Source: Bythopirellula sp.
Lineage (GTDB): Bacteria; Planctomycetota; Planctomycetia; Pirellulales; Lacipirellulaceae
Length of the DNA: 64,000 bases
NCBI GenBank assembly: GCA_965216565.1
Contig: OZ244170.1
Location: 1,952,001-2,016,000, forward strand
Direction: 5' to 3'
Shown: positions 14,474 through 49,561 of the stretch, in pieces
Layout of the letters: every line of letters begins with the position of its first letter
How positions within the stretch are numbered: the first letter of the stretch is position 1
Translations under genes and position numbers: made by a program
Notes under the pieces: generated by a model
The model's database searches: none
Told to the model about the DNA's origin: nothing
What the model saw: the letters and a program-made list of their open reading frames with translations, nothing else

Positions 14474-16867
14474 CTACTGTAGCTTGAAACGGGCTGTCAA
14501 ATCGGCGCGACTATCGCCACCCACCCAAAGCTGAAACTTGCCCGGTTCGATCAAGAATTCCTCGTCTTCGTTGTAGAAGCCTAGCTGATCGGATTTCAGC
14601 ACAAACTCTACAACTTTGCTTTCGCCCGGCTTGAGAGGAACTCGCTCGAAATCTTTCAGCTCACGAACAGGACGGACCACACTACCAACTAAATCTCGAA
14701 CATAGAGCTGCACGACTTCTGTTCCGGCACGCTTTCCCTTATTGGTGACACGCACTTTGACGGTGATCTCTCCCTCTTTGTCGAGCTCACGCGAAGACAA
14801 ATCTAGGTCTTCATAGTTGAACTCCGTATAGGAGAGACCGAATCCGAAGGGGAACAAAGGAAAGGGATCCGAGTCGATATAGTGGGAAGAATAACGGACA
14901 TTTTCCGGCATGTTTTTTACCTTATCAAGCGACGGTGCTTGATAGTCATCAGGAGCGGGTCGGCCCGTCTTGGGATGATTGTAGTAGAGCGGCACCTGGC
15001 CAACTGTTTTCGGGAACGTCACCGGCAACTTACCCGAGGGCGATTCGACGCCGAGTAATAAATCGACAACGGCCGGGCCCATCATCGTGCCTGCTTGCCA
15101 TCCGTAAAGTACGGCATCGACCTGTTCAATTTGCTTGCCAATGGTAAGTGGTCGGCCTGCATTGATGATCATTACGGTCGGAACATCCAATTTCCCAACT
15201 GCCTCGACAAGCCGAGCCTGCGAGCCGGGCAATCCCAATTCCGTTCTGGAGTGAGCTTCACCACTGAAGGACTCTTCTTCTCCCACAAACAGCAGTGCGA
15301 TATCAGCTTCTTTGGCTGCAGCCACGGCTGCATCATACTGGGGATGATCTGGCAGATACTTGGATTGCAAACAAGGAACGTGAATGATCTCGCAATCCTT
15401 GCCGAACCTTCGTTTCAATGCCGAGAGCGGCGTAATGCTATCTTCGTCTTTGGCATCCATCACCCAAGTACCGAGTTGGTCGCGAGGTGCATCCGCAAAG
15501 GGGCCGATCACGGCGATTTTCTTCAGGGAGTCTTGATTCACGGGCAACGCGGAATCGTTTTTCAAAAGGACCATACTCTGACGACCAAGTTCTCTCGCCG
15601 TCTGTAGATATTCTTCGTCTAGCAATTCTCTCTGCTCAGGATCGGCATAAGGTTCTTCAAACAAATTGAGCCGGGCCTTCGTGTCCAAAATGCGGCCCAC
15701 CGCGTCGTCGATGAGCTTCATATCGACACGCCCAGATTCCAGGAGGTCGGACATATTCTTGGCGTAGCAAGTGCTGACCATTTCCATGTCGACTCCGGCT
15801 TGCATCGAAAGTTCAGCCGCTTCGCTCTTGTTTGCGACGCTTCCATGCTTGATCATTTCGATTACCGAACCCCAGTCGCTGACGACAAAGCCCGAGAATT
15901 GCCATTCGTCTTTCAGCACCTCTCGAAGCAAGCGTTTGTGACCAGAGGCTGGCACCCCGTTCACCGTATTGAAGGCAGTCATCAGCGTGCGTGCCTGCTC
16001 GTCGATACAAGCTTTGAACGGTGGCAGAAACACGTTGCGGAGTTCGTTCCGAGATACCAGTGCTCGGTTGTAGTCTCGGCCACCTTCGCTCAAGCCGTAA
16101 GCAACAAAGTGCTTCGGACACGCGGCGACGCCACGCAACACACCATTGGAGTCGGGAAGTTGAAAACCTCGCACCATGGCTGTGCCCACGGCAGCAGCCA
16201 GTACCGGATCTTCGCCGGGGCTTTCGGCAATACGCCCCCAGCGTGGGTCACGGGCAATATCCACCATCGGTGCAAACGTCCAATGGATGCCCACTTTTCT
16301 TGATTCGTAAGCAGAGAATTTGGCGGCTTCTTCGATCAGCTCTGGATTCCAGCTTGCTGCCTGACCCAGGGGGATTGGATAGATTGTTCGAAAACCGTGA
16401 ATCACGTCACGAGCGACAATCAAAGGAATACCAAGTCTAGACTGTTCGATAGCCACTCGCTGAGCATCTTGTACGATTTCGTCCTGGCCTGGATAGAAAA
16501 TCGAACTGACCTGGCCCGAGCGGATCTGACCTGCCAGATCATCAGACAAGCTCGCGCCGCCGGGGAAAGCCTGACACAGCTGGCCAATCTTCTCTTCCAG
16601 CGTCATTGCCGAGATGATCTCCTCGACGACCTCAGCAGGATCAGTCGGATCAGGTCGGAACCTAAGCCGGGGCAGATTCTCGGTCGGATCTTTTTCCAGA
16701 CGAGCATCCGAGCGGGGCAGGGTGGCAGTTTCTACGGGTCCTGTGACGGTCGGCCCCGTGACGGTTGTTTCAGCCGACACCAATGGCAATGTCACGCTCA
16801 AAGGGAGACAGACTGCCAGAACACCCAGCAAAGCCGCACAGCACATAAAATTTCGCAAAGCCTTCAC
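14474..16867 (-). CDS. GH3 beta-glucosidase (BglX-like), secreted
   Basis: MTLEEKIGQ, DVIHG, RDPRWGR, KHFVAYG, VVSDW nucleophile, C-terminal Fn3-like EVVQLY; GTG start overlaps the GH16 stop by 1 nt. Confidence 0.93.
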   Translation of the reverse strand: MKALRNFMCCAALLGVLAVCLPLSVTLPLVSAETTVTGPTVTGPVETATLPRSDARLEKDPTENLPRLRFRPDPTDPAEVVEEIISAMTLEEKIGQLCQAFPGGASLSDDLAGQIRSGQVSSIFYPGQDEIVQDAQRVAIEQSRLGIPLIVARDVIHGFRTIYPIPLGQAASWNPELIEEAAKFSAYESRKVGIHWTFAPMVDIARDPRWGRIAESPGEDPVLAAAVGTAMVRGFQLPDSNGVLRGVAACPKHFVAYGLSEGGRDYNRALVSRNELRNVFLPPFKACIDEQARTLMTAFNTVNGVPASGHKRLLREVLKDEWQFSGFVVSDWGSVIEMIKHGSVANKSEAAELSMQAGVDMEMVSTCYAKNMSDLLESGRVDMKLIDDAVGRILDTKARLNLFEEPYADPEQRELLDEEYLQTARELGRQSMVLLKNDSALPVNQDSLKKIAVIGPFADAPRDQLGTWVMDAKDEDSITPLSALKRRFGKDCEIIHVPCLQSKYLPDHPQYDAAVAAAKEADIALLFVGEEESFSGEAHSRTELGLPGSQARLVEAVGKLDVPTVMIINAGRPLTIGKQIEQVDAVLYGWQAGTMMGPAVVDLLLGVESPSGKLPVTFPKTVGQVPLYYNHPKTGRPAPDDYQAPSLDKVKNMPENVRYSSHYIDSDPFPLFPFGFGLSYTEFNYEDLDLSSRELDKEGEITVKVRVTNKGKRAGTEVVQLYVRDLVGSVVRPVRELKDFERVPLKPGESKVVEFVLKSDQLGFYNEDEEFLIEPGKFQLWVGGDSRADLTARFKLQ

Positions 16868-18522
16868 TATTCAACTCCCCCAAGGATATTTAGAGATTTG
16901 TGGAGGTGCGTTTGAACCTTGTTCTCCATCAAACCTATCAACTCGTTGTTCCCGCCGATTGATGTCCCAGATTTTGGAGCCGCTGCTGCGGGGGCCGAGT
17001 TCGATTGATTGTATTTCGACTCCCAGACGGCACGATCTGCGTTGTTGACGACTCCATCGTAGTTAAAATCTCCATCAGCAACCGAGGTGCCATCGTTCTT
17101 GCCGAGGCCCTTCTGCCACTCCATAAAATCGAGGCCGTCTACTCGTCCATCGTTGTTGGCATCGGCATTAAACTCCACATCGAGATTCCGGAACGCAACC
17201 TCATCGAGATGAACCGCCCCTCCCTCGTTATTAGGCTGAGTGAAGACTAATGCTAAGCGAGCCTCGACAGCACCTGTGGGGACGGTATCTGTGATCGTGT
17301 GGGAATGCCACTGGTCATTGGCAGTGTTTCCATCAGCGATTTTGATGGATTTCGAACTAATGTAAGCAGACGAGCCAAACCGTGCGCCCGGTTCGCTGTA
17401 GTAATCTATTTTCATATCCACGTGGTTCTTAGTGTCAGAAATCGAATCCGTGCCGCGGATATAAGCCTTCACCGAAGCAGATAGCGAATCGCCCGGCGAA
17501 ACACTGATCGCCTGGGCTACGCCCGAGTGGTTTTCTTCTCCACTCGACTGACCGAACAGCTTAAGTGCTATCGCGCCATCGCTGACAGATTCGTTATGCA
17601 CTTGGACATTGGGACTCTCTTGAATCTTGTTACCGAAAGTGGACCAGTTCTTGAGCGATCCGCCGTCCGCCTCGAAACCGCCATTCTTAAACACTACCGG
17701 AGAGGCATCTTTCGCCCGTTCGTAAACTCGAACGTAGTCGACAAGCATCTGCTGAGGCCAGCTACTACTAGGCCCGGGCTGAGCGTCTTTCAAAAACTCA
17801 CCGCCCACTGCCACGTTCAGCTGCACTTCGACGGGAGCTGTTTGGCTCGATAGAAATCCACCTACCTCGGCATCGTAAATTGTGAAGTAATGCACGTCGT
17901 CGACGAAGAACCGAAGCTTCTTTTCGTCCCACTCAACTGCATAGACGTGAAACTCTTTGTGAAAATTCTCAAGCTCGCCCAGAACCGAAGTCCGCTGCTC
18001 GTCGAATAAGAATTTCCGTTTCTTCGGACCGGGGCCGTAGTGAAAGGCGCTACTGGTGAGATGCGGCTGATTGCCACGGTTCTCCATGATGTCGATCTCA
18101 CCCTGCGTGGGCCAGGGGTGCTTTTTGGTGTCGGGTAGCAACCAGATCGCTGGCCAGGTGCCCAGCGTGCCGGGGAGTTTGGCACGAACTTCCCAGCGAC
18201 CGTGTCGCTTGGTCCATTTGCTTTCAACTTTGCCGGAGGTGAAGGCCTTGCCGCCATACTCTTTGGTGATAGCAGTTAGTGCCAAATGGCCCTCGGACAC
18301 AGAAACCTGAGACGGATGATAGGCCTGACGCTCATTGTTGTGAGGAGTCGTCCAATCGATGGCTTCCCACTTCGTGGTGTCGAGAGAATCACCCTCGAAT
18401 TCATCGCTCCACACTTTATGCCAACCAGGAGGGGCAGCAATTGCGGGGATGTCTTGCTGGAACAACGCCCCCCCAAAGCAAAGAATCAAACCAATGACTA
18501 TCCGCTGACCCAACTGATTCAT
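16867..18522 (-). CDS. GH16 endo-beta-1,3-glucanase (laminarinase-like) with CBM-like and dockerin-like domains
   Basis: WSDEF, WPAIWLL, catalytic GEIDIMEN, DYVRVY; then a NGGFE CBM-like sandwich and DANNDGRVDGLDF repeats. Confidence 0.9.
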   Translation of the reverse strand: MNQLGQRIVIGLILCFGGALFQQDIPAIAAPPGWHKVWSDEFEGDSLDTTKWEAIDWTTPHNNERQAYHPSQVSVSEGHLALTAITKEYGGKAFTSGKVESKWTKRHGRWEVRAKLPGTLGTWPAIWLLPDTKKHPWPTQGEIDIMENRGNQPHLTSSAFHYGPGPKKRKFLFDEQRTSVLGELENFHKEFHVYAVEWDEKKLRFFVDDVHYFTIYDAEVGGFLSSQTAPVEVQLNVAVGGEFLKDAQPGPSSSWPQQMLVDYVRVYERAKDASPVVFKNGGFEADGGSLKNWSTFGNKIQESPNVQVHNESVSDGAIALKLFGQSSGEENHSGVAQAISVSPGDSLSASVKAYIRGTDSISDTKNHVDMKIDYYSEPGARFGSSAYISSKSIKIADGNTANDQWHSHTITDTVPTGAVEARLALVFTQPNNEGGAVHLDEVAFRNLDVEFNADANNDGRVDGLDFMEWQKGLGKNDGTSVADGDFNYDGVVNNADRAVWESKYNQSNSAPAAAAPKSGTSIGGNNELIGLMENKVQTHLHKSLNILGGVE

Positions 18523-18725: not shown

Positions 18726-19223
18726 CTAAGGCAAACTCCTTGCAGGTTCACTCGAGACGCCCTTGCCGGCCCACAGCTGGTCGTACTCCGCACCATCGAC
18801 TTCGCGTGTTTCCATGTTCAGGAAGCCAACCATGCGAGTTCCGTCGACACCGGTCGACTCGAAAACAACCGGTTCAGAACTGCCCATAGCACTGCCCTTA
18901 ACCGAAAAACGTATCTTGAATGGCTCATTGTCACGCGAACTGACGAAGAGGGCGTCGATCGAGCTAGGATCGATACCAATCCGTTGCAGCTTTTCCGGTT
19001 TGACACTCGAGATGAACTCTTTGAATTTATTTTCGTTCTTCGGTCCCTTCCAGTTATGTTTCATCTGGTAAGCAAGATAAAGGTTAGACAGCCGCTTGAG
19101 GTTCGAGTCGTTCGCCCGGGCGATTGCCTCACTAGTATCAATTTCACTCATGCAACCTGCCAGGCTACTTAAGAGTAGTGAACAAGCGATTGCACGAACT
19201 GTGACCGAATGCGTTTTAGCCAT
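18726..19223 (-). CDS. Hypothetical lipoprotein following DUF1559 gene
   Basis: Lipobox LAGC after a hydrophobic stretch; start placed at ATG 19223. Confidence 0.7.
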   Translation of the reverse strand: MAKTHSVTVRAIACSLLLSSLAGCMSEIDTSEAIARANDSNLKRLSNLYLAYQMKHNWKGPKNENKFKEFISSVKPEKLQRIGIDPSSIDALFVSSRDNEPFKIRFSVKGSAMGSSEPVVFESTGVDGTRMVGFLNMETREVDGAEYDQLWAGKGVSSEPARSLP

Positions 19224-19311
19224 GAAATCTTCGAACGTCCTATTTAATTGACGGTGTGCTGACAATTCAATCAACAGATTGAACCATCGTCCGTTGAGCC
19301 AACCTGACTCA

Positions 19312-20346
19312 TTACAAATTATTCAAATCTACGATTGCACCATCGGAACGCTTTCCGAGTTGATCGAGCAATATCAAGTCCGCGTCACTCGAGAGAGTTT
19401 GGGTAGAGCCATCGCCAAACACGGTTACAAAAACTCCTGGGTGGGCAGAGCCGAAGCCAAATTCTTCACCCTGAGATCGAGTTCGCGGTTCGTTGTCTGA
19501 CAATACAGGAAGCTCTTCGCCACTACCACCATTCGTTAATGCTCCGAACTGGCGCATGATAGGCCAGTCGGCGCCGGTGTAATACCCGTAGAGTTCCCAG
19601 AAGGGGAATGGGCTGGTCGATTCGAGTGAGTAGGCGTCGGATCTTACTGCTTTCTCTGCGAGCAGCATCGTATTGGATGATCCATCTTCAATCGCATTGA
19701 AGCTGACTTTCTGGAACTTCCATACCTTGCCGTTATTCGTGTTGACATGCCCACCCTTGGTGAGGATCCCGGTCCAAACTGTAGTTTCTTCATTGACCTC
19801 CGGATCACCCTGATTCACCCCTTTGGGCGGCTTACTTATTTGCCATTCAAAACCTGTCCAGCCCGGATCATTCCAGCTTGCCATCACACCTGCGTAGTCG
19901 CCGACTCGGTATAGATCGGTGCCGTTAATCACCCATCTGTTGTCACGGGTCGGACAATTGAACGCAGAAACTGGTGTTTCGATCATCCCGCTATCGATGA
20001 AACTTGGATTGCCACCATTTTCGCGGAGGTCCGCAATATTTTGCAGTTCCAGGTAAGGCAGTATCTGGTACATCCAGCTGCCGGTTTCGTATCCGGTTTT
20101 ATTTTGGTTGAAAAACTGCTCGACCGCTCCACCTGCAGAGGGAAAGTGGCCCTTGGCAGACTCAAAGTTCATGCAAGCCAATCCGAGCTGCTTCATGTTG
20201 TTCGTGCACTGGGCACGGCGGGCTGCTTCGCGAGCTGCTTGTACTGCGGGAAGCAACAGGGCTACCAAGACGCCAATAATGGCAATCACGACGAGCAGTT
20301 CCACCAGGGTGAAGCCCGCAACAGATTTATTACGCTTTACTGACAT
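19312..20346 (-). CDS. DUF1559 prepilin-type N-terminal cleavage/methylation protein
   Basis: [41 protein letters not shown]-terminal H-X9-DG ([14 protein letters not shown]). Confidence 0.95.
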
Positions 20347-20462: not shown

Positions 20463-22130
20463 CTAGCGGTTACGTCGACGCATCAACAATCCGGCAGCCA
20501 GCGAACCCAATAGTAAAGTTGAGGGTTCTGGAACAGCAGTAACGGCTGACGCGAGTGGCGACGTGCCATACTGGGCTTCGTAGATTGCCAGGTCAGCGCT
20601 ACCTACCGTTCCATCGCCATTGGCATCGCCATTGGAGTTGTCGATCTGGCCGGTCAAACCCAGATTCTGCTGAAGAATCAGGAAGTCCAAACCGCTCACA
20701 ACACCGTCGCCATCGAAGTCGGCATTGTCGAGCGAGACTACCGCATCGTCGAAGGAGACGTTGTCGATGAAAATACCGGTCGGTGCAAAGTTGCTCGACC
20801 GATTGGTGATACCGAACTGAATGAGATGACCAACAAAGTTGGGGTCGATATCAAACAGCACCGAGCCAGACGTCCAGGACGAACTGGACAATCCCAGCGT
20901 GGAGGCGTCGAGCAAGCTCTCGGCACTAGTCACGAATCCATTGTTCGGATCGATCGTTCGGATATAGAACTGAGCAAAGGATTGGTTCGGATCGTAGGCA
21001 GCATTAGGATCGGTGGGTAGAGTCGCGTCAAACTTGAACTCTACTTGTCGGCCAGCGTCCGCAGAACCAACAAGAAGCTCTTGAAAAATGCTGCTCTCAA
21101 CGATATCTGTGCCATTGAAGTGGCCTTGGTTGGTGGTTCCTGGTCCGCAACAGTTGTAATCGCTAAACGTGTTGAGGTATTGGACACCTTGGCTAGGGCC
21201 TGCTTGACCGCTGGCTACGCTAGAGAAACCGCTGCCACCGTTCGGTGCTCCGAATGGACCATACTGGAACTGGAAATTGTTACCGCTATCAAACACGGCC
21301 CCGAAGCCTCTCCAACCATCATTGTTGAGGGCTTCAGGATTAGCAGCGACTGTTCCAGTCTCCGCTTCGAAGTCTTGAGTATAGGAACCGAAAGTGTCAT
21401 TGATGCTAAAGTCGACCACGTCGTAGCCGACGCCTGAAGCTTCGAAACCGGAGGCCCAGTTGTCGAATCCAAACTGCAGCAAGTCTCCCTGGAGATCACT
21501 AGTAATCGGCAGGCTTAGGGTCATCTGCACAAAGTTGTTCGGGTCGGAATCCAACGCAGTGGTTTCCACCGAATATTTTGCCTTCGTGAAGAAGAAGGTC
21601 GGATCCAAGGATTTAATAAAGGCATTGGCCTTGGTGCTTGTGGCTGTAATATCAGCTTGAGCATCCTTATGAGCCAAGAAACTAAACTTGGCCGTCTTAC
21701 CAACGTCTGAGGCGGCGATGAATTGCTCGCGGAAGACTAGAGACTCGATTCGATCGTTGGGATCTCCGTGGTCACCATTCTGGTAATCGCTAATCACAAC
21801 AAGTTCTTGGTCCCCTTGAGGAGGCGTGCCCTCGAAGGATGTAGTCTTGATGAGGGAGAACGCAGCGAAAGAAGGATTGTTGGGAGCCGGAAAAGAGAAG
21901 TAGTTGTATCGAAGAACCGTGGTGTCGGCTCCAAGATAGGTGCCGGGATCTGAGGCAAAAACATTGGCGCCGACCAACCAACCATCATGAAGGGTATTCG
22001 GATCTGTCTGTACAGTTCCGGGCAGCTCAAAATCTCGAGAATAAGGCACTAGCTGCGCCATGGCTGACGCTGCATGGAAACCGACGACGGCCGCACTGAT
22101 TGCCAGTGCAAAATTTAGTGAATTGCGCAT
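20463..22130 (-). CDS. PEP-CTERM surface protein with two tandem beta-rich domains and a dockerin-like repeat
   Basis: RBS AGGAG before ATG 22130, signal peptide, internal duplication, DFDGDGVVSGLDF repeat, VPEPSTLLL...RRRNR tail. Confidence 0.85.
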   Translation of the reverse strand: MRNSLNFALAISAAVVGFHAASAMAQLVPYSRDFELPGTVQTDPNTLHDGWLVGANVFASDPGTYLGADTTVLRYNYFSFPAPNNPSFAAFSLIKTTSFEGTPPQGDQELVVISDYQNGDHGDPNDRIESLVFREQFIAASDVGKTAKFSFLAHKDAQADITATSTKANAFIKSLDPTFFFTKAKYSVETTALDSDPNNFVQMTLSLPITSDLQGDLLQFGFDNWASGFEASGVGYDVVDFSINDTFGSYTQDFEAETGTVAANPEALNNDGWRGFGAVFDSGNNFQFQYGPFGAPNGGSGFSSVASGQAGPSQGVQYLNTFSDYNCCGPGTTNQGHFNGTDIVESSIFQELLVGSADAGRQVEFKFDATLPTDPNAAYDPNQSFAQFYIRTIDPNNGFVTSAESLLDASTLGLSSSSWTSGSVLFDIDPNFVGHLIQFGITNRSSNFAPTGIFIDNVSFDDAVVSLDNADFDGDGVVSGLDFLILQQNLGLTGQIDNSNGDANGDGTVGSADLAIYEAQYGTSPLASAVTAVPEPSTLLLGSLAAGLLMRRRNR

Positions 22131-22343
22131 GGGTCTCTCCTGTGAAAACTTCATCCTGGTATTACTCGTTAATGAATAGATCGATCGCCCGAAGCATGCC
22201 AAGATTTCTGGCATGGCTCCGACTATCTCGCGCCGAACAACGCTAGTTGTGGTCTCTGCAAAAGCAGCACCGCTGCCCCATAGAAATGGGTGCCGCCTGT
22301 CCCGCCCCAAGCCTCCTCGAATCTGCTCAGTCTTGGCGGCAAT

Positions 22344-39114: not shown

Positions 39115-42100
39115 ATGACGAATAGATTCAACACAACTCGATTTACGCAACTGGTCAGTAACGCCTCGCGATTACTGCTGGCAATAGCTACGGTTTGGCT
39201 GGCGCCCTTGGGCCCGTCGGCGAATGCTCAGGATGCTTCCTCGCCTGCTTACCTACAATTTTTCGAAGCTCGATGGGACACGATTGAAGAGCGGCAAGTC
39301 GACGTATTCAACACGGGCTATGGTGGAATGTGGTTGCCGCCTCCGACTCGAGCCGACAGCAGTAATTTTTCCGCCGGCTACGACCTGTTCGATCGCTTCG
39401 ATTTGGGCAGTCCGCGCAACGAAACTCTCTACGGCACCGAGGATGGTCTGAAGATATTGATTCAACAGGCGCACAAAGCCGGGGTCAATGTTGTTACCGA
39501 CTTAATCCTGAATCACAATGGTTTTAGCGACCTAAGCACTTCGGAATATCAAGGCAACGATCCCAACAACCCCGACCCCAATGACTTCGTGACGTTTGCC
39601 GAGAGTGGCGGCTACCCAGGTTTTGTGGTCACGCTGTCGGCCGAAGACGATCCTCAAGGGGTCGGCGCCATCGATGGAGATTTTCACAGCTCGTTCGCCG
39701 GGGGCGATCTGGATGGCAGGGTCTCCAATTTGATTGACATCGATCAGGACTCGGATCACCAATTCATTCGGCACCCAACAGTCCCCGGCAACCCGAATAA
39801 CATTCCCGCGGGCACGAAGGGAATTTTCGGGCGACCGCCGGCCAATCTACCCGACGCGAATAATGCTCGTTTCTATCCCGACCAGGCCAACGGAGGAAGA
39901 GTCTTTGACGTCGATCCCGGTCCCGGTGAGTTTTTGGTCACCCGTTACGATTTCAATACAGTAACTCCACTCGCTGGAGATCCCATCTTGGAGGATGCAG
40001 AGGATCTCACACTTCGGAGCGTTCAATGGATGGTGCAGGAAATTGGGGTCGACGGTTTTCGAATCGATGCGGCGAAACATTTCCCGCTCAACACGTTGAC
40101 GCTGCTCGATCAGAAGGTATTCGCAGCAAGCAAATACACCAACTTGGACGGAAGCATCAAGCCCATCTTCTCCTTCAGCGAAGTGCTGGATGGCAACACC
40201 GGTTTCGTGCAGAGCTTCATTAACAAATCGCTTTCCAATCCGCTCGCAATCGACCCCAACGATAACGTCGTGCGCGCCAACCGCGATGCGCTCGACTTCC
40301 CGCTTTCTTTTGCAATGCGTTTCAATTTGACCGATAACGGTTTTGCCAATAATTGGCACAACATCCGCCATGCCAGCCAAGATTTTCACGATGATGGGCT
40401 CATCAATGGCAGTTCGGGCGTTCAGTTCGTCAATAACCACGACGATCAAAATGGCGGCGCTGCTGGCGATGGCGCCCCGTTCCTCGACAAGGTGGCTCAT
40501 GCCTACATCTTAATGCGACCCGGCAATGCGGTGGTCTACTTCAACGCGGAGGAATTTGGTTCAGCGGAGTTCCGCGGCTTTCCCACCCACGGCACAGACG
40601 ACGCACTGGGCGGACCTTCTTCTGGCGACGCGGTTTCCACCTTGGTTGGCCTTCGTAACACCCACGGTCGGGGAAATTTCCATGAGCGTTGGATTGATGA
40701 CGCGTTCAATCCCAATGGCTTTTCAAATATTTACATCTACGAGCGTGAGGCTTCCGCAATCGTCGGGTTGAATAGTCGGAACGATACGTTTGTTGAAACT
40801 CGGTCGGGAGTCCAAACAGGCTTCGCCCCTGGCAGTATCTTGGTCGAGCTTACCGGCAATGCGACCGACCCGACGGTCGACCCTGGCAATTCCATCCCCG
40901 ACACGATCAAGGTAAATGGATCGGGACAGGTGAATGTAAGTATCCCCAGCAATGGCTCCCACGGGCGAGGCTACGTTGTCTACGGTCTGGCCCAACCGCA
41001 AGGTACTTTGTCGCTTACGAATGTTGCCTCGGTGCTAAGCGGTGGTACACCAACCGATCCGAACAATGGGACAGTCCGGCAAGGCGACATCCGCGTGATT
41101 CACAGCAATTCATTCGATGTGCAGCTAACGACGAATCCCGTGAGCCTCGTAAATCCTGACGATCCCAACACGATGGTCCGCGACGTACATGCCGACGGCG
41201 ACACTGCCTTGTTGCGAATTGACGAAGGCATGGATCTGAACAACATCGCTGGTTTCGACAATCCCACGCCTGGCAACATCGCTTACGGATTCGAAGATTT
41301 TACCGACACAAGAACGCCGGGCTACATCTGGGATGGGGCCACGAACATCGGTTCTGGAACCGGCACCTATGCACAAACGATCGATGCCACCCAGCTTTCC
41401 GAAGGCCAGCATCACATCACCGTGCGAACATTCCGCCATCGCAACTCTGGCACCGGTGGGGACGGCGGTCCTGCGATTTATACCGATTTCAAAGAGACCA
41501 TCTACGTCGATCGTTTGCCGCCCGAAGCAGCGGTCGTCAGCTTCGATCCCTTCGCCACCAGCCCCACGGTTCTAGACGATCGAGATTTGATTGTACAATC
41601 GACCGACTTAACAGCGGACAACATGCACCTATTTCTCGATCTACCTGAAGGCATGACCGATGCCCAGGTACTAGCCTTGGCACTTTCTGGCCAAAACGAT
41701 GCCGGCGAATATGATCGGGACAAATGGATTTTTGGTTTTACCGGAGTGACCACGGGCAACCATGTAGCGACCGTCGTCACATTCGAACAAACGTTCGACG
41801 GCACGAATGGATTCAACGTGCAGCGATTTCCCGGTTTCTTTACAGATACCGGCATTGGCGTCGGCTTTGGCGATCTCGATGCAGATAATTCGCTGGAAGT
41901 GGCCGATCTGCTGGGGACGTCGAACAACTCGTTCGAAGACGTACTCTATAGCCAGAACGCGGAGTTTAATGCGGCAGCCGACCTCGATGGAGACGGCGAT
42001 GTCGACAACCTGGACCTCTTCGCATTGGAATCCGAGCTAATTTCTTCCGGGGCAAGCCAATCGGTGCTCGACGCCTACGACGAATTACTCCTGGAGCGCG

Positions 42101-42555
42101 GAGACATTAACCAGGATGGTCAAACCAACGGCGACGACGTCATGGCCCTGCACCTAGCCTTTGGAACCAGCAATTGGCTGGAAGATTTGAATGTCGATGG
42201 CACCGTAGATTTGGGCGATGTGCAAACGCTTATCACAAACATCGCTCGCACCGTGAATGGTGACTTCGATTTGGATGGCGACGTCGACGGCGTCGATTTC
42301 CTTGCTTGGCAGATCGGCGCCAGCACTGCCGGTGCGGATTTCTACAGCCAAGGAGATGCGAACCTAGATGGCTCCGCCAATGGGGCCGACTTAGCGATCT
42401 GGAGTGGTTTATACGGTACCGTGGCAACCGGCGCAACGATCACCTCGAACGCAACGGTTGTCCCCGAGCCAAGTACTATGACTTTGATAAGTTTTGTTAT
42501 TGTTTCTTTGAACTTACGTTTTCGGAGTAGTCGCAACGCATACACAGCAGTGTAA
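39115..42555 (+). CDS. Surface GH13 alpha-amylase with dockerin-like repeats and PEP-CTERM
   Basis: GYDLFDRFDLG, DLILNH, DGFRIDAAKH (nucleophile), SEVLD (acid/base), NNHD; Asp-rich EF-hand-like repeats; VPEPST tail. Confidence 0.88.
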   Translation: MTNRFNTTRFTQLVSNASRLLLAIATVWLAPLGPSANAQDASSPAYLQFFEARWDTIEERQVDVFNTGYGGMWLPPPTRADSSNFSAGYDLFDRFDLGSPRNETLYGTEDGLKILIQQAHKAGVNVVTDLILNHNGFSDLSTSEYQGNDPNNPDPNDFVTFAESGGYPGFVVTLSAEDDPQGVGAIDGDFHSSFAGGDLDGRVSNLIDIDQDSDHQFIRHPTVPGNPNNIPAGTKGIFGRPPANLPDANNARFYPDQANGGRVFDVDPGPGEFLVTRYDFNTVTPLAGDPILEDAEDLTLRSVQWMVQEIGVDGFRIDAAKHFPLNTLTLLDQKVFAASKYTNLDGSIKPIFSFSEVLDGNTGFVQSFINKSLSNPLAIDPNDNVVRANRDALDFPLSFAMRFNLTDNGFANNWHNIRHASQDFHDDGLINGSSGVQFVNNHDDQNGGAAGDGAPFLDKVAHAYILMRPGNAVVYFNAEEFGSAEFRGFPTHGTDDALGGPSSGDAVSTLVGLRNTHGRGNFHERWIDDAFNPNGFSNIYIYEREASAIVGLNSRNDTFVETRSGVQTGFAPGSILVELTGNATDPTVDPGNSIPDTIKVNGSGQVNVSIPSNGSHGRGYVVYGLAQPQGTLSLTNVASVLSGGTPTDPNNGTVRQGDIRVIHSNSFDVQLTTNPVSLVNPDDPNTMVRDVHADGDTALLRIDEGMDLNNIAGFDNPTPGNIAYGFEDFTDTRTPGYIWDGATNIGSGTGTYAQTIDATQLSEGQHHITVRTFRHRNSGTGGDGGPAIYTDFKETIYVDRLPPEAAVVSFDPFATSPTVLDDRDLIVQSTDLTADNMHLFLDLPEGMTDAQVLALALSGQNDAGEYDRDKWIFGFTGVTTGNHVATVVTFEQTFDGTNGFNVQRFPGFFTDTGIGVGFGDLDADNSLEVADLLGTSNNSFEDVLYSQNAEFNAAADLDGDGDVDNLDLFALESELISSGASQSVLDAYDELLLERGDINQDGQTNGDDVMALHLAFGTSNWLEDLNVDGTVDLGDVQTLITNIARTVNGDFDLDGDVDGVDFLAWQIGASTAGADFYSQGDANLDGSANGADLAIWSGLYGTVATGATITSNATVVPEPSTMTLISFVIVSLNLRFRSSRNAYTAV

Positions 42556-42634
42556 TTTTCAACGACAATTTGTCTTTTTTGAGTCGGTCGATCCTAATGG
42601 TCGCCGCCTACAAGTCTTGATGGAGGGTATTCTA

Positions 42635-44230
42635 ATGAAATCTATGAATCGTTTAACTCTGAGTTTGGCAGCCATGGTGCTGGCCGTGTGGACTGTGCAA
42701 GTTAGCGCCCAGCCTGTGATCGACGGCACGGCGAGCGTCGCCGATGGTTACAGCTCAATCTTCGTACAGAACACAAACACCCAGTTCGGCAATGCTACGA
42801 ACGGCGATATTATCGATGGCGGGGGCGGTTCTGAACTCGACCAAATCCATGCAAAGATCGAAAATGGTCGACTCTATATGGTGCTTGCAGGTAATCTTGA
42901 ACTCAATTTTAACAAGATGCAGGTTTTCTTTGATACAGATCCAAACGCTGGCGTCAACCAAATCATCAGCAATCCAGATAACCCCGGGTTCTCCACAACT
43001 GGCATTAACGATCCGAACAGTAACGTGCCTTATGGCTTGGATCAGTTTTGCTGTGGTGGCTTAGTTCCTCCTGACGGCGGAAACACTAACAATCAAGGTG
43101 GCCTCCAAAAGTTTGATTTCTTTACCTTTGATCCAGGATTTACGGCGGACTACACGGTGAACTTCTCTCATGGAAACGAGAATGTCGGCCCCGCAGGTCC
43201 CTCAAATATTCAGTTCTATGCTATGAATGCTCACTATGCCGACCTAACTCAAGGCGTCGATGGCGACGTAGTGGCTGCTGGCGTTGTACTAGCTCCGTTG
43301 GGCCTACCCAATGTGCTGCGAAGTCCACTAGGTGGGGACTTCAACACAGATGGAAATGTCGACGGGCTCGACTTTTTGATCTGGCAGCAAAATCGAGATC
43401 AATTTAATCCAGACCCTAATAACATTGACGATCCCAACAATCCTGGCGCCATGCGTTCGCAAGGCGATGCCAATGACGATGGGTTCGTTAATGGTGCTGA
43501 CTTGGCTATTTGGGAAAGTGGCTATGGAAACGATCCGCCACTTAACGGAGATCCGTTTGTTCCTAATTCGTCGATTACCTCAACTGAAACTCTGATCGGT
43601 CCAGCACTACCAGGGTTGTCGCAAGGCCAACTGATCGACAAGGTCTACGCCATGGATCCTAATGGGGGCGGTTGCACCGATAGCGCTGGCACGGGCTGCG
43701 TCGCTCGGGAGCTCGAATTCGTTCTGCCTGTCGATGCGGCTGGTAACCCAAATAATCACCGCGACTTCGAGAACACCGTCGATCTTCAGCTAGCCATCAA
43801 TAACAGCAACACGGGTGGTGTCGAGGGAACGGATCCCAACGCTAACGGTATGTGGAATGCCACGGGGAACCCTGGTGACGTTAACACTGGGATCGAGTTT
43901 TCCATTCCACTGTCGGAGATTGGCGATCCCAATTCGGGCGATGACATCAAGATAACGGTTTTTATCAATGGTTCTGGATTCGATTTTGCTTCCAATCAAT
44001 GGTCAGGTGGAGTCCTCCAGGGCAACCTCGGCGGCGATGGAGCTGGCAATTTCACCGGCGGCTTGGGTGATATCGATTTAGGCACCATCGCGGGCGACCA
44101 ATTCGTCACCCTCGGTGTCCCTCTGGCTGCTGCTGTGGCGGCTGTTCCAGAACCATCGACCGTGGCACTTCTCTTGTTCGGGGCCAGCTGTGCTGGGCTC
44201 CGTCGCCAGAGGAATCGTCGTCGAAGCTAG
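42635..44230 (+). CDS. PEP-CTERM surface protein, paralog of 35655-36623 with dockerin-like insertion
   Basis: RBS GGAGGG, signal peptide, shared motifs GRLY..L.GN.E.NFNK and QGNLGGDG.G.FTG; VPEPST tail. Confidence 0.85.
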   Translation: MKSMNRLTLSLAAMVLAVWTVQVSAQPVIDGTASVADGYSSIFVQNTNTQFGNATNGDIIDGGGGSELDQIHAKIENGRLYMVLAGNLELNFNKMQVFFDTDPNAGVNQIISNPDNPGFSTTGINDPNSNVPYGLDQFCCGGLVPPDGGNTNNQGGLQKFDFFTFDPGFTADYTVNFSHGNENVGPAGPSNIQFYAMNAHYADLTQGVDGDVVAAGVVLAPLGLPNVLRSPLGGDFNTDGNVDGLDFLIWQQNRDQFNPDPNNIDDPNNPGAMRSQGDANDDGFVNGADLAIWESGYGNDPPLNGDPFVPNSSITSTETLIGPALPGLSQGQLIDKVYAMDPNGGGCTDSAGTGCVARELEFVLPVDAAGNPNNHRDFENTVDLQLAINNSNTGGVEGTDPNANGMWNATGNPGDVNTGIEFSIPLSEIGDPNSGDDIKITVFINGSGFDFASNQWSGGVLQGNLGGDGAGNFTGGLGDIDLGTIAGDQFVTLGVPLAAAVAAVPEPSTVALLLFGASCAGLRRQRNRRRS

Positions 44231-44344: not shown

Positions 44345-46372
44345 ATGCCAGAAATTCAGCCCAATATTTTAACTCGGTTGTGTACCGTTCTCTTAGTTTC
44401 ACTCTCTGCGCTGATCGGTTGCAACGCGCAGCAATCGCCAACGCCTCAGGCCACGCCGGCAGCAACCCAAACGACAGCTCCAGCAGTTTCATCAGAACCT
44501 GCCAATCTAGCAGAGCAATCCCCAGCCGAAGATCAGACGCCCTCGGACGAAATTGACACTTTGATGGAACCCTTCGTTCCATCTTGGGTCGTCGACGCGG
44601 TGTTTTATCAGATCTTCCCCGAACGTTTTCGCAATGGCGACTCGTCGAACGATCCTACCCGGGAATCGCTCGAACCCAACGATGTCTCCGATAGCTGGGC
44701 GATCACCCCTTGGACCAGTGATTGGTACAAGCGGGCAGATTGGGAAAAAGAGATTGGTGACGACTTCTACGAATCTGGAGTCTTTCACCGTCGCTTCGGG
44801 GGCGATTTGCAGGGAGTGCTCGATAAGCTCGATTACCTGGAAGACTTAGGCGTCAATGCGATCTATTTCAATCCCGTTTTCTATGGGCGATCGCTGCACA
44901 AATATGACGGTGCTTCAATGCACCATATCGATCCCTACTTTGGTCCCGACCCTGCGGGCGATCTCGAGATTATTGCCACCGAAACTAGCGATCCCGACAC
45001 TTGGAAGTGGACTGCCGCGGACAAACTTTTTCTCGATCTCGTTCAGCAGATACACCAACGCAAAATGCGGCTGATTATCGATGGAGTGTTTAACCACACT
45101 GGCAGAGACTTCTTCGCGTTTGCCGATTTGCGGGAGAAGCAAGAAGAGTCGCGCTACGTGGACTGGTATATCGTGCAGAGTTTCGACAAACCCGAGACGC
45201 CTCAAGATGAGTTTCGCTACAAAAGCTGGTGGGGAATCGACACGCTCCCAGAGTTTGCGGACGATTTCGATCGGACCGACCTGCACCCAGGCCCGAAGAA
45301 GTATATTTTCGACGTCACCCGCCGCTGGATGGATCCCGACAATGATGGCGACCCCTCCGACGGCATCGATGGCTGGCGATTGGATGTGGCTAATGAAGTG
45401 CCTTCCGGTTTTTGGAAGGACTGGAACTCGCTAGTGCGGGACCTCAATCCCGATGCCTATACCGTGGGCGAATTCTGGGGCGATGCCAAGCAGCATCTCG
45501 TCGATGGTCGATTCTCTGCCACGATGAACTATCACGGCTTCGCTTATTTGGTGAAAGGCTTCCTCATCGACGGCAGGCTCACCGCACACGACTTTGGAAT
45601 GCAGCTGCGAGACCGCATGGAGGAATACCCTCGCTCGATGCAATTTGCCTTGCAAAACCTCATTGATTCGCACGACACCGATCGTGTCGCCTCGATGATT
45701 GTGAATGCCAACGACGAGAATTATTTACAAGCTGAAAAGTTCGACTACGACGTTTCCGAAGTGGTCTCTCCTCGCTACACCCTTGCCTATTCGGCCGAGG
45801 CTCCCGACGACGACGATCGCCGCATTCAACGGATGGTCGCACTCATGCAAATGACGTTTGTCGGTGCCCCCATGGTTTACTACGGCACCGAAGCCGGAAT
45901 GTGGGGAGCCGACGATCCTTGCAATCGCCAAGCCATGGTCTGGGAAGACTTACAATACGACCCCCAAGCCGAAGATCCTCGGAACAGAAAAAGGAACGCG
46001 GATCCTATTGAATTCGATCAAGAATTGTTCGATTTCTACCAAAACGCCATTCAGCTTCGTCTCGACAATCCAGCGCTGCGGAATGGTGCCTTTGAAGTCC
46101 TCAGTTTTGATGACGAAGCCATGTTTATTGCTTTTCGTCGCGTCTCAGACGAAGGTACCCTCATCGTGGCAATCAATCGTGGGGATAGCTCCTATGAGTT
46201 CACTTTCGATACAAAACCGAATAGTGCCTGGTCCACTATTTTTGCCGCATCGGAGAATCTCGAAAGCGTGGCAGTTGCTGCGGAAGGCAATCAATCAACC
46301 GTTTCAATTCCTGCGATGGAAGCGATTGTTCTCAAGGATCTAGCGGGAGCGGAGCAGCAGGGCCCTGAATGA
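44345..46372 (+). CDS. GH13 neopullulanase/cyclomaltodextrinase-like lipoprotein
   Basis: LIGC lipobox; FYQIFPERF, GGDLQG, DGVFNH, DGWRLDVANE, GEFW, SHDTDR. Confidence 0.92.
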   Translation: MPEIQPNILTRLCTVLLVSLSALIGCNAQQSPTPQATPAATQTTAPAVSSEPANLAEQSPAEDQTPSDEIDTLMEPFVPSWVVDAVFYQIFPERFRNGDSSNDPTRESLEPNDVSDSWAITPWTSDWYKRADWEKEIGDDFYESGVFHRRFGGDLQGVLDKLDYLEDLGVNAIYFNPVFYGRSLHKYDGASMHHIDPYFGPDPAGDLEIIATETSDPDTWKWTAADKLFLDLVQQIHQRKMRLIIDGVFNHTGRDFFAFADLREKQEESRYVDWYIVQSFDKPETPQDEFRYKSWWGIDTLPEFADDFDRTDLHPGPKKYIFDVTRRWMDPDNDGDPSDGIDGWRLDVANEVPSGFWKDWNSLVRDLNPDAYTVGEFWGDAKQHLVDGRFSATMNYHGFAYLVKGFLIDGRLTAHDFGMQLRDRMEEYPRSMQFALQNLIDSHDTDRVASMIVNANDENYLQAEKFDYDVSEVVSPRYTLAYSAEAPDDDDRRIQRMVALMQMTFVGAPMVYYGTEAGMWGADDPCNRQAMVWEDLQYDPQAEDPRNRKRNADPIEFDQELFDFYQNAIQLRLDNPALRNGAFEVLSFDDEAMFIAFRRVSDEGTLIVAINRGDSSYEFTFDTKPNSAWSTIFAASENLESVAVAAEGNQSTVSIPAMEAIVLKDLAGAEQQGPE

Positions 46373-48672
46373 AGACGTCGGCACTTGAAACGTCGATTGG
46401 AATTGTCGCAAAAGTAATTCGTCTGAAGTGCAAGCTTCTGACGATCGCACTACTACTTCTGACCTCTGCAGGTCTCATCGGATGCCAACCCGCGAGCCAT
46501 AAGCGCACGATCACGGTGTGGCACCAACTGACTCCCCGCGATCGGGCCCTGTTGGAGCGTCGCATTGCGGACTTTGAGCAGTTCGATCCGAACATCCATG
46601 TAAGGTTTCTCTACAAAGAAACGGAGGAACTACGCAGCGGATTTCAAGCGGCCGCTCTGGCTGGGATTGGCCCGGAACTCATTCATGGCCCCACCGACGC
46701 CCTAGGCCCATTCCAAGCGATGGGAATCATCCAGGACATGTCGCCCTGGTTGAACGCCAAGTCTCAAGCCGCTTTCTTGCCAAATGCGCTAACCTTTGTT
46801 CCAAGCCGAGACGATCCGCAACGAAAAGAGCTACTTCAAATTCCGGATCGTTTCGGAAACCATCTGGCCCTCGTCTACAACCGCGATTTCATCAAAGAGC
46901 CTCCGAAGACAACAACTGAACTGATCGAACTTGGTAAACAACACACCGTCGATGCGAACGGCGACGGTAGAAACGAACGCTACGGCCTGGTTTGGAACTT
47001 CGTCGAACCTTTTTTTGCCATCCCGTTTGTCACCGGCTATGGAGGCTGGGTATTCGATGATTCTGGCGACCCCGTGCCTAACCTAGATACGCCCGAGATT
47101 GTAGACGCATACGAGTTCGTACTTTCGTTGAGAGACGAGCATAAGATTGTCCCCAATAACTGCGATTACGAAACGGCCGACTCACTTTTCAAAAGTGGCA
47201 AAGCAGCCATGATTATCAATGGCGATTGGAGTTGGTCCGACTATCTAGCAGCCGAGGGCATCGATGCCGCCGTGGCCCCTTTGCCGCTGGTGTCTGCCAC
47301 TGGCGAGCCCATGGGACCGATGGTCTCGCCCAAAGGGTATTCCTTGAATGCCGTTCTCGACGACACTGCCAAGCGCGATGCAATGCGCTTCGTCGAATTC
47401 ATGACCAGCGACGCAACGCAGAGATTCTATATGAGCGAGGGCTTGATTCTGCCCGCCTTGAAAGAGCCGTACGAGGATCCCATGATGTCCGAAAACGACA
47501 CATTGGTTGCCTCGAAAATCCAGCTCGACAACGGACGGTTGATGCCTGTCGATACCGAGTTACGGGCCGTATGGGACGCGATGAGACCCGCCTACCAGTC
47601 ACTCCTGGGGGGCAGTATCACCGCAGAGCAAGCTGGCAAGCAAATGCAAAAAGAGGCAGAGCGAGCCATCGATCTGATGAATCGCGACAGCCAGGCAGCC
47701 GCTGAGCCCTGGGTCTGGCAATTGTTGGGGGCGATTCTCTGCGGTGCGCTGCTTTTTTGGCAGCGGCGGAGTCTACTCCAATTTCTCCCCGATGTCCGTC
47801 GGCAGCCATTCGCTTATTGGCTGGTGCTACCCTCCATTGTTGTCATTTTCTTAACGGTCGCCTTTCCTTTTTTCTACAACGTTCTGCTTTCGCTCTCGAA
47901 TATGTCTCTCACCAATTTTCAGGAGTGGGAGATTGTAGGTCTGGAAAACTACCGAGAAGTGTTTGCCGAAGGGTCGTTCTATCGGTTGCTGGGCAGAACG
48001 ATCTTTTGGACGGCGATTAACGTCTTCTTTCATACATGCTTTGGCGTACTACTGGCGATGGCCATCAATGGGCCTATTCGGGGGAAGACGTTCTACCGAA
48101 TTTGCCTCATCATTCCCTGGGCCGTGCCGGCTTACATTACCGCTCTCACGTGGCGGAGCATGTTTCACTACGATTACGGCGCAATCAATCTGTTGTTGAG
48201 CAATTGGTTTGGCATCGAACCTGTGAATTGGCTCGGCGAACCGAGCCCAGCTTTCGCCGCCTGCATTGTTGCAAATGTATGGCTCGGCTATCCCTTCATG
48301 ATGGTCATCGCACTGGGCGGGCTGCAGGGAATTCCCAATGAGCTTTACGAAGCCGCCCGGATCGATGGTGCGTCGCGGTGGCACCAGTTTTGGCACGTCA
48401 CGTTGCCGCTGCTCAAACCAGTTTTAGCCCCCGCGGTTACGCTGGGTGCGATTTGGACTTTCAACAATCTAAACGTGGTGTGGCTCGTCTCCAACGGCGG
48501 CGAACCCGCCAACAAAACGCATATTTTAGTTTCCTACGTCTATAAAGCCGTTTTTAACCTCTATCGCTATGGCTATGGCGCAGCACTTTCGATGGTGATT
48601 TTTGCCATCCTGCTTGCCGCCAGCCTCATAGGGTTGCAGCGTTCGCGCGCCACCGAAAGCGTCTACACTTGA
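46369..48672 (+). CDS. Maltodextrin ABC transporter, fused substrate-binding (MalE-like) + permease (MalF-like)
   Basis: Lipobox LIGC, SBP motifs (LALVYNRD, AMIINGDW, VWDAM) then TM domain with EAA loop LYEAARIDGAS. Confidence 0.88.
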   Translation: MKTSALETSIGIVAKVIRLKCKLLTIALLLLTSAGLIGCQPASHKRTITVWHQLTPRDRALLERRIADFEQFDPNIHVRFLYKETEELRSGFQAAALAGIGPELIHGPTDALGPFQAMGIIQDMSPWLNAKSQAAFLPNALTFVPSRDDPQRKELLQIPDRFGNHLALVYNRDFIKEPPKTTTELIELGKQHTVDANGDGRNERYGLVWNFVEPFFAIPFVTGYGGWVFDDSGDPVPNLDTPEIVDAYEFVLSLRDEHKIVPNNCDYETADSLFKSGKAAMIINGDWSWSDYLAAEGIDAAVAPLPLVSATGEPMGPMVSPKGYSLNAVLDDTAKRDAMRFVEFMTSDATQRFYMSEGLILPALKEPYEDPMMSENDTLVASKIQLDNGRLMPVDTELRAVWDAMRPAYQSLLGGSITAEQAGKQMQKEAERAIDLMNRDSQAAAEPWVWQLLGAILCGALLFWQRRSLLQFLPDVRRQPFAYWLVLPSIVVIFLTVAFPFFYNVLLSLSNMSLTNFQEWEIVGLENYREVFAEGSFYRLLGRTIFWTAINVFFHTCFGVLLAMAINGPIRGKTFYRICLIIPWAVPAYITALTWRSMFHYDYGAINLLLSNWFGIEPVNWLGEPSPAFAACIVANVWLGYPFMMVIALGGLQGIPNELYEAARIDGASRWHQFWHVTLPLLKPVLAPAVTLGAIWTFNNLNVVWLVSNGGEPANKTHILVSYVYKAVFNLYRYGYGAALSMVIFAILLAASLIGLQRSRATESVYT

Positions 48673-48703: not shown

Positions 48704-49561
48704 ATGAAGAAGAACCATCTCGATGACAAACCGACCGAAGCGATGGGAGTGTCGCTGTTGAGGCACGCAGTGCTATTGCTGTTTGTGTTTATCAGCCTCT
48801 ATCCCGTACTTATCGTACTCTCGATCTCCTTGCGGCCGGGGAACCAGCTACAATCGACCGATCTCTCACTTATTCCAGAAAATTGGACGTTCGATTCCTA
48901 TCGTAGCCTATTCACAGAACAACCTTTCTTAAATTGGCTAGGAAACTCTCTGCTCGTTTCAGGTATTGTGACGATGACCGGCGTGGCATTGGCGTCGCTG
49001 GGCGGGTACGCATTGAGCCGTTACAAATTTGTGGGACGACAAACTTTGATGCTCTCGATTCTCACGACGCAAATGTTCCCAGCGACAATGCTCTTGCTGC
49101 CCTTGTACATATTGATCGCCAAGTTGCACTTAGTAGATACGTATTTAGGGCTGATGATCTTTTACGTATCCACCGCTTTGCCTTTTTGCATTTGGCAAAT
49201 GAAAGGCTTTTACGACACGATTCCCCCTTCGCTGGAAGAAGCAGCTTCCATTGATGGTTGCGGACAATTCAGTGCCTTCTGGCGGATCGTGCTTCCCGTG
49301 GCAGTTCCTGGACTTGTGATTACAGCCTTGTTTAGTTTTATGACCGCGTGGAGCGAGTACATTGTCGCGGCCCAGGTCTTGCAAAGCCGCGATCTGTTCA
49401 CGCTACCCTTAGGAATCAAGGGATTTCAGGCGAGCATGTCGACCCAATGGGGACTCTATGCGGCAGCTTCCATTCTTGTCAGCATTCCTGTGGTCGTTGT
49501 CTTCATCATCTTGAGTCGGTACCTTGTTTCGGGCATGACCCTCGGTGCCGTGAAAGAGTAG
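48704..49561 (+). CDS. malG: Maltodextrin ABC permease (MalG-like)
   Basis: TQMFP, MKGFYDTIP..LEEAASIDG, AWSEY; about 6 TM. Confidence 0.85.
   Translation: MKKNHLDDKPTEAMGVSLLRHAVLLLFVFISLYPVLIVLSISLRPGNQLQSTDLSLIPENWTFDSYRSLFTEQPFLNWLGNSLLVSGIVTMTGVALASLGGYALSRYKFVGRQTLMLSILTTQMFPATMLLLPLYILIAKLHLVDTYLGLMIFYVSTALPFCIWQMKGFYDTIPPSLEEAASIDGCGQFSAFWRIVLPVAVPGLVITALFSFMTAWSEYIVAAQVLQSRDLFTLPLGIKGFQASMSTQWGLYAAASILVSIPVVVVFIILSRYLVSGMTLGAVKE

Follow-up and report, generated by a model that had tools for sequence, protein, structure and literature searches.

In a 64,000-nucleotide stretch of the genome of a planctomycete, Bythopirellula sp. (contig OZ244170.1, positions 1,952,001 to 2,016,000; hereafter the window), two polysaccharide loci, one on the minus strand for beta-1,3-glucan and one on the plus strand for alpha-glucan, each contain a gene for a pilin-like DUF1559 protein next to genes for lipoprotein and PEP-CTERM proteins. 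We observed gene linkage, a pairing with the lipoprotein, a class III signal on the DUF1559 protein, and a shared candidate operator; the gene association in the two loci is more than chance. From their sequences, a pilin-fold protein and its cognate lipoprotein appear to stand where an outer-membrane importer is missing. The reading we prefer, with a confidence a little short of even, is that the two together form a subunit, co-induced and exchangeable, of a retractable type IV pilus that the loci share and that would aid the passage of nutrients through the outer membrane. The loci themselves are real, conserved, probably co-regulated, and similar in layout and control to polysaccharide utilization loci (PULs), without being members of the SusC/D PUL family.

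DUF1559-A (19312..20346, minus strand) carries the signal G11|F12-T-L-V-E16 and an H-X9-DG tail, and its partner, lipoprotein A (18726..19274, minus), has a lipobox and is without a Pfam family. On the plus strand, DUF1559-B (36775..37836) precedes lipoprotein B1 (37890..38546), which has an acidic tail, and lipoprotein B2 (38543..39019), which weakly resembles adhesin beta-sandwich repeats. The original prediction, made from the DNA letters without database searches, had assigned a type IV prepilin signal to DUF1559, and both PF07963 and TIGR02532 indeed scored over cut-off in A and B. F12 and E16 are invariant over 138 sequences, E5 and the entire hydrophobic helix are near-invariant, and the G-1/F+1, E+5 signature of the class III signal of the type IV pilin superfamily is present.

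A model of DUF1559-A predicted from the 138-sequence alignment reached a predicted local distance difference test (pLDDT) score of 90.8 and a predicted template modeling (pTM) score of 0.89; a single-sequence fold (pLDDT 36) was discarded. Comparison with 48,161 chains returned 21 with Z ≥2, of which 20 are pilins or pseudopilins. The best match, PilA4 (6xxd; Z 4.3, 119 aligned residues, root-mean-square deviation 3.4), covers residues 12-331, and the matches overall span 12-344. The model predicts a type IV pilin fold for DUF1559, with a long N-terminal helix on a C-terminal beta-sheet that bears the H-X9-DG motif, and a loop-rich, variable insert of ~200 residues. Among 50 paralogues, identity to DUF1559-A was 74% over residues 12-70 and 8-10% over residues 136-215 and 236-295, while the insert segments are ~50% identical within clade A, which conserves W163, W191, W250, Y255, and Y256. 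This reads as a constant assembly end with a clade-specific head. Like the type IV pilins and the pseudopilins of type II secretion systems (T2SS) (PilA4 6xxd, EpsG 4lw9, ComP 5hz7), DUF1559 combines a class III signal, E5, a long N-terminal helix, and a C-terminal sheet; it differs from them in the ~200 extra residues of its head and in having dozens of paralogues that lie apart from assembly genes, each accompanied by a regulator of its own and a lipoprotein partner.

PF07596 gave 65 matches in the genome, corresponding to 63 DUF1559 genes. By our own gene calls, a same-strand PEP-CTERM gene lay within two genes of 32 of the 63, compared with 357 of 2825 other genes; 26 had a partner lipoprotein and 17 had both. 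Hidden Markov models built from the lipoproteins beside DUF1559 genes and run genome-wide recovered five family-A and 24 family-B proteins, and all five and 23, respectively, lay within two genes of a DUF1559 gene, the exception being a 1574-aa protein. An obligate pairing of DUF1559 with a lipoprotein is thus supported. On the DUF1559 tree the lipoprotein type changes once (94 labeled rows; likewise 20 rows of this genome alone, shuffle p 0.0004). Because lipoprotein families A and B share only the signal peptide, the two loci of the window use different partner families, and their PEP-CTERM proteins have only a dockerin-like repeat and the tail in common; the two cassettes are analogous and not, as had been claimed, the same. 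As a feature of the two loci the cassette is real in both, but with 63 DUF1559 genes genome-wide it is not special to the window. An expansion of DUF1559 on this scale, like the TIGR02989 sigma factor of the plus-strand locus, points to a planctomycete.

Among 16 paralogue pairs of this genome, DUF1559 and lipoprotein B did not co-diverge significantly (rho 0.23, p 0.056); the higher value for 37 lipoprotein A pairs (rho 0.77) is inflated by orthologues. No natural fusion of lipoprotein A was found in 8000 scored proteins of 343-2000 aa, which is weak evidence. That lipoprotein A might be a lipid-anchored pilin head was set aside as unproven (hhalign 8% and 0.3-3%, Atlas lead 0.83).

To characterize the surroundings of 57 DUF1559 genes, we scanned every protein of at least 220 aa encoded within 3 kb of them, 220 in all; the pair in the window and four weak matches were left out. 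The control consisted of 91 proteins encoded in nine regions of 20 kb, each separated from the nearest DUF1559 gene by 34 kb or more. Glycoside hydrolases (GH), polysaccharide lyases (PL), and carbohydrate esterases (CE) accounted for 21 of the 220, with nine sulfatases besides, compared with none of the 91 controls and one sulfatase (Fisher p 0.0008 for GH/PL/CE and 0.0003 for the sum with sulfatases, from a small control and with non-independent genes in each locus). A carbohydrate-active enzyme (CAZyme) or sulfatase lay within 3 kb at 21 of the 57 loci; split by context, at 21 of the 39 with a lipoprotein or PEP-CTERM neighbor and at none of the 18 lone genes. Other cassettes adjoin nucleoside phosphorylases, a phosphonate-type binding protein, peptidases, or DHDPS-family lyases. 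At one locus, a cobalamin riboswitch lies ~190 bases upstream of a DUF1559 gene, which is followed by a DUF4465 PEP-CTERM gene (L173:9022-10219). The glycan specificity first proposed for the module is contradicted by such non-glycan settings (the cobalamin riboswitch; nucleoside, phosphate, and peptide genes); the module serves nutrient loci generally.

The window contains two copies of the palindrome GWAACWGTTWC, compared with 0.10 expected, each shortly downstream of a sigma-70-like -10 box. One candidate operator, GAAACTGTTTC (23271..23281), lies just downstream of the sigma-70-like promoter of the cassette operon (23322-23295, minus strand), and the second, GAAACAGTTTC (24586..24596), lies downstream of a promoter-like site of lacI (24639-24612, minus strand). 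We infer that the LacI-family repressor encoded at 23479..24576 (minus) binds this palindrome. It was present within 6 kb upstream of all 7 A genes that neighbor a LacI gene, of 8 of the 23 A genes that do not, and of 4 of 7 B2 genes, and of none of the 95 controls, which comprised 37 B1 genes, 50 other paralogues of this genome, and 8 outer A relatives. The pattern was derived from these A loci, so the 7 of 7 is circular, and it was relaxed with the orphan A loci already known; each of its degenerate positions shows variation inside the LacI loci themselves. As an independent check, of the 12 sites genome-wide two are those in the window, nine lie by unrelated genes, and one falls at the beginning of another GH16 gene, 2.46 Mb distant (at 4.43 Mb). 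The candidate operator would tie the laminarin-type clade to the beta-glucan regulon, including A copies away from LacI, and co-regulation of the cassette with its nutrient locus is well supported. Upstream of the starch cassette we found no promoter motif for an extracytoplasmic function (ECF) sigma factor, only ribosome-binding-site words recurring there, and the scans for promoters and terminators gave the numbers of sites expected by chance. Elsewhere in this genome, away from the beta-glucan locus, a B2-type DUF1559 gene with lipoprotein B and two PEP-CTERM genes (L140; G000:C1:1335964-1337019) has a one-mismatch operator-like site 1.7 kb upstream.

The expectation that DUF1559 clades track their CAZyme context was examined on family trees and loci, and was borne out for the starch clade but not for clade A. 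The starch-side sample consisted of the best 40 matches to DUF1559-B in relatives, to which a paralogue from this genome was added. Its B1 group comprised 37 loci of relatives, with a PEP-anchored GH13 gene in 37 of 37, a second GH13 in 36, an ECF factor in 32, FecR in 34, and neither GH16 nor LacI in any; this linkage is equally expected from vertical inheritance of one locus. The 30 A-clade loci in relatives had lipoprotein A in 26 (at the score threshold used), GH16 in 6, LacI in 6, and GH13 in none. Conversely, of 120 family genomes 74 have one orthologue each of the LacI of the beta-glucan locus, and at least 49 of the 73 orthologues in relatives have a DUF1559 gene within 8 kb, of A type in at least 6 and B-like in at least 44 (one with both); the other 24 had none among the matches listed, with short contigs and a search confined to the A and B-like clades. 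In a 71-row tree, from which one fetched gene was left out as incomplete, 24 B-like proteins of LacI/GH16 loci formed three groups of 4, 9, and 11, with the group of 11 inside the GH13 group; GH16 was verified beside four of these 24 (L074, L129, L135, L137), the rest being assigned by LacI alone. Nesting of the beta-glucan B2 group in the starch clade was seen in trees, but monophyly of the starch clade was not rejected (approximately unbiased test, p 0.47).

Three same-genus genomes (G005, G008, G012) carry the orthologous GPH-LacI-GH16 locus with a B-like pair, two genomes (G007, G114) carry both A and B-like types, and the beta-glucan locus of the window is the rarer A form. By these comparisons, the beta-glucan locus seems nearly always to keep a DUF1559/lipoprotein pair and to swap its lineage. 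A correspondence of one clade to one substrate is supported only partly, and a strictly substrate-specific version is weakened by the lineage exchange at the beta-glucan locus. At L135, a 69-aa remnant resembling lipoprotein A (13067-13276) lies between two GH16 genes of a locus that now has a B-type pair, and is possibly a trace of cassette replacement. The natural exchange of cassettes between alpha- and beta-glucan loci also indicates which parts can, and which cannot, determine specificity. Fine linkage specificity is likely to lie mostly in the enzymes and PEP-CTERM proteins, with only coarse specificity in the pilin.

Profiles for the TonB receptor barrel (PF00593), the plug (PF07715), and SusD (PF07980) had no match in the genome (one contig, 94% complete) and did match in Bacteroides thetaiotaomicron, the positive control. 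The predicted lack of a TonB-dependent receptor in the window was confirmed by Pfam scan, and likewise none was detected genome-wide; within the family, 77 of 120 genomes have no PF00593 match and 43 have 1-7. No SusC/SusD tandem pair of the Bacteroidota PUL type was found, and the ECF and FecR genes are present without a detectable counterpart of the TonB-dependent transducer that stands upstream of the anti-sigma factor in cell-surface signaling. In other phyla, TonB transducer genes sit at the position relative to ECF-FecR where the starch cassette sits. The idea that the cassette takes the place of SusC/D is consistent with its setting, in regulated nutrient loci of a genome without detectable SusC/D. 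Bacteroidota PULs such as Sus share with the present loci a regulator, a surface endo-glycanase with binders, a periplasmic exo-enzyme, and an inner-membrane importer grouped by substrate, an obligate two-gene pair that includes a lipoprotein, and ECF/anti-sigma or LacI control. They differ in that here no TonB-dependent transporter or SusD was found, the pair consists of a pilin-like protein and a lipoprotein of 120-180 aa, and the surface proteins use PEP-CTERM tails.

The genome encodes machinery for assembling a pilus, with five secretins, ten PF00437 ATPases, and two TIGR01420 PilT proteins, all over cut-off, a Peptidase_A24 prepilin peptidase, and a platform protein. Three secretin (T2SS-like) loci have their own pseudopilins of 107-147 aa, and no pilin-like gene lies in the pilM-secretin operon (74-84 kb). 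The PilB-PilT-PilB-PilC locus (143-155 kb; region G000:C1:136559-154543) has four large pilin-like genes (378-447 aa) and no small major pilin, small pilins having been sought by pattern in all open reading frames (ORFs) of at least 70 aa; its nearest pilin-like gene encodes the most DUF1559-like non-DUF protein. A 2077-aa protein is encoded beside this locus. We infer that this PilT-containing machine, lacking a small major pilin of its own, is a candidate assembly platform for DUF1559. In the cycle that we envisage, an oligosaccharide would relieve LacI (beta-1,3-glucan) or activate ECF/FecR (alpha-glucan), and envelope-displayed PEP-CTERM enzymes and binders would cut and hold the glucan. 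Prepilin peptidase would cleave the DUF1559 protein, the PilB/PilC machine would build the filament, and PilT retraction would pull bound glucan or oligomers through a secretin. GH3 or the second GH13 would then trim the oligomers in the periplasm, and GPH or MalEFG would import the products.

Several observations weigh against this retractable-pilus reading. At 330 residues, DUF1559 is large for a major pilin. The structural Z-scores are low (best 4.3), so that the support lies in the consistency of the match list, and Foldseek against the PDB gave nothing under E 0.001 for the DUF1559-A model. Clade B1 has a single Trp/Tyr among 33 clade-specific conserved positions, unlike a typical aromatic glycan platform. 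GH16 is nearby in only the 6 of 30 A-clade loci noted above, and many of the other A-clade loci lie amid unrelated genes (101 of 110 cluster representatives were scanned); DUF1559 genes of four or more lineages replace one another at the beta-glucan locus, the majority being relatives of the starch lineage; and 36 of the 57 scanned loci are without a recognized CAZyme or sulfatase within 3 kb. Finally, PMC8567305 places the prepilin-SBP_bac_10 products of Tuwongella in membrane fractions, which is no demonstration of filaments.

The fold and co-regulation evidence fits equally well with substrate-induced adhesion pili, in which a DUF1559 filament holds the cell on glucan particles that surface enzymes degrade, small products enter by porins, and the pilus itself imports nothing. 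The endo-acting GH13 and GH16 carry surface anchors, one A locus (L067) has an OprB porin beside it and this genome has one, and PMC13174399 describes MUL2 of Akkermansia as probably serving attachment. Attachment is a poor fit to a module behind a cobalamin riboswitch and beside nucleoside, phosphate, and peptide scavenging genes, and we consider it unlikely. Quite unlikely, in our estimate, is that DUF1559 and its lipoprotein act as a cargo-specific pseudopilin that adapts a T2SS so that the PEP-CTERM enzymes and binders expressed alongside are exported or displayed. The excess of PEP-CTERM neighbors (32/63 against 357/2825) would favor it, as would the three T2SS-like loci with secretins and, from part of PMC11685898, a rise of T2SS proteins on fucoidan in one planctomycete; yet several A pairs keep the operator without an adjacent PEP-CTERM gene, DUF1559-A stays 54-65% identical while PEP-CTERM neighbors get replaced, and each T2SS-like locus has its own small pseudopilin.

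We find it very doubtful that DUF1559 never polymerizes and is instead an inner-membrane-anchored periplasmic binding or sensing protein, reusing a pilin anchor, that passes oligomers to an ABC or major facilitator superfamily (MFS) importer or to the anti-sigma factor. FecR needs a periplasmic signal and the head is large and globular; the Pfam name is SBP_bac_10, and in the relevant passages PMC2754498 calls the family solute-binding without a test and PMC8567305 reports the membrane fractionation. Against this, the near-invariant E5 and hydrophobic helix would be explained by assembly, no solute-binding-protein fold is among the structural matches listed, and MalE is already present in the starch locus. 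Barely credible, and already largely refuted, is mere hitch-hiking of an expanded family that piles up in variable genomic islands with CAZymes: 63 copies, many of them lone, and orphan A pairs in unrelated contexts might suggest it, but 37 of 37 starch loci are conserved across genera, orphan A pairs keep the operator, and 49 of 73 LacI orthologues keep a DUF1559 gene of the two sought clades despite lineage replacement.

Scans of window proteins with Pfam (45 proteins) and NCBIfam (19) agreed with both predicted gene orders. The minus-strand locus also encodes a BglX-like GH3 beta-glucosidase (14474..16867; PF00933/PF01915/PF14310, NF011678 over cut-off) and a laminarinase-type GH16 enzyme (16867..18522) with an EIDIME motif, an accessory domain, and a dockerin-like repeat; the motif is intact, and the best PDB relatives are mostly laminarinases, which also lead the list. 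Two PEP-CTERM genes follow on the same strand. The product of 20463..22310 has a dockerin-like repeat, no match to a carbohydrate-binding module (CBM), and no homologue of its body in the fetched loci. That of 22451..23119 gave a CBM_4_9 signal under cut-off (E 0.0014) and a weak profile match to the GH16 accessory domain (prob 69%), so that the description of these proteins as CBM-like is retained weakly for the second and for the first not at all. A GPH-family sugar:cation symporter (24710..26176, plus), divergent from lacI and kept in three same-genus loci, is part of the beta-glucan locus. Without a PEP-CTERM tail at its end (16867-17000), and with no VPEP in the other two frames, the GH16 of the window may be periplasmic or be released from the cell; the tail is present in the genome's second GH16 and in all 6 of the orthologues checked.

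The plus-strand locus runs from an ECF sigma factor of the TIGR02989 family (32855..33565) and a FecR-domain anti-sigma factor (33526..35457) to PEP-CTERM protein B1 (35580..36623), for which an Atlas score of 0.87 to a PF09985 cluster (glucodextranase C-terminal, DOMON-like domain) is a lead only. Beyond the cassette lie a GH13 alpha-amylase-type enzyme with a PEP-CTERM tail (39115..42555), whose N-terminal part matches alpha-amylases and whose three catalytic motifs we take, by eye, to be present; PEP-CTERM protein B2 (42617..44230), a paralogue of B1 that had been omitted from an otherwise correct gene order; a cyclomaltodextrinase/neopullulanase-like GH13 lipoprotein (44345..46372); a MalE-MalF fusion of binding protein and permease in one ORF (46369..48672); and the MalG permease (48704..49561), all on the plus strand. 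The starch locus is without an ATPase gene (no MalK). CAZymes, regulator, and sugar importer for one substrate are co-located. PF07589/TIGR02595 matched four window proteins, the VPEP tail of the GH13 was seen in sequence, and the genome has one PF09721 exosortase gene to go with these VPEP-hydrophobic-basic tails; the PEP-CTERM bodies had no PDB match, and CBM_4_9 stayed under cut-off.

Between the loci and part of neither lies an efflux trio of RND, membrane-fusion, and outer-membrane proteins (26251-32626), which the fetched relatives of these loci did not show. Immediately downstream of GH3, and on its strand (10866-14269), genes for a Xylose-isomerase-like TIM barrel, a Gfo/Idh/MocA oxidoreductase, and a nucleoside-symporter-family MFS protein are possibly part of a beta-glucoside pathway. 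Further out lie a peptidoglycan recycling cluster (51146-63414: M14 and S66 peptidases, a NamZ/beta-lactamase-family fusion, an SSS transporter, a MurQ-like SIS protein, a BadF kinase, and AnmK) and, at 3094-7655, EgtB-like, EgtD-like methyltransferase, and betaine-type ABC transporter genes, presumably an ergothioneine-related cluster. Rfam had no match in the window.

Passages of PMC5394234 report that in planctomycetes dextran enters the periplasm by an energy-dependent route and that dextran-coated gold binds pili-like fibers, and leave the route of polysaccharide uptake unexplained as of 2017; PMC12078418 names this the "fishing rod" hypothesis. Both propose that pili-like fibers bind and pull in polysaccharide, and their passages name no genes, whereas the present loci supply candidates tied to defined sugars. 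According to PMC8567305, prepilin-SBP_bac_10 genes are dispersed and often flanked by signal-peptide genes; passages of PMC4807772, PMC5352709, and PMC2754498 note the family without a tested function. In Akkermansiaceae, glycan use involves a type IV-like pilus locus, MUL2 (PMC13174399); there too, glycan use in the Planctomycetes-Verrucomicrobia-Chlamydiae (PVC) superphylum is linked to such a pilus. By its description, MUL2 is set apart as a single, conserved locus for a machine that includes PilM and an archaeal-pilin-like protein, whereas here many pilin-like genes are spread over substrate loci. The passages of PMC11685898 do not mention pilins, and its 5 supplementary files contain no DUF1559, prepilin, or pilin string. 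Our literature search, which mostly covered sources other than subscription journals and bioRxiv supplements, found no paper describing the cassette.

A wider idea, which we put forward tentatively and regard as somewhat doubtful, is that planctomycetes swap a repertoire of TonB-dependent receptors for a library of interchangeable, ligand-binding type IV pilins, in which each DUF1559/lipoprotein pair would be induced by its nutrient, loaded on one PilT-powered machine, and reeled through a secretin, for glycans, vitamin B12, and other nutrients. If this is true, DUF1559 copy number would play the role that SusC/D copy number plays in Bacteroidota. The candidate operator would define a beta-glucan regulon across a family, and the two loci tie named DUF1559 genes, members of one of the largest planctomycete families without a function, to cheap, soluble substrates with predictable inducers. 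The open questions of how planctomycetes capture large sugars and what DUF1559 does thereby become experiments in knock-out, induction, and binding.

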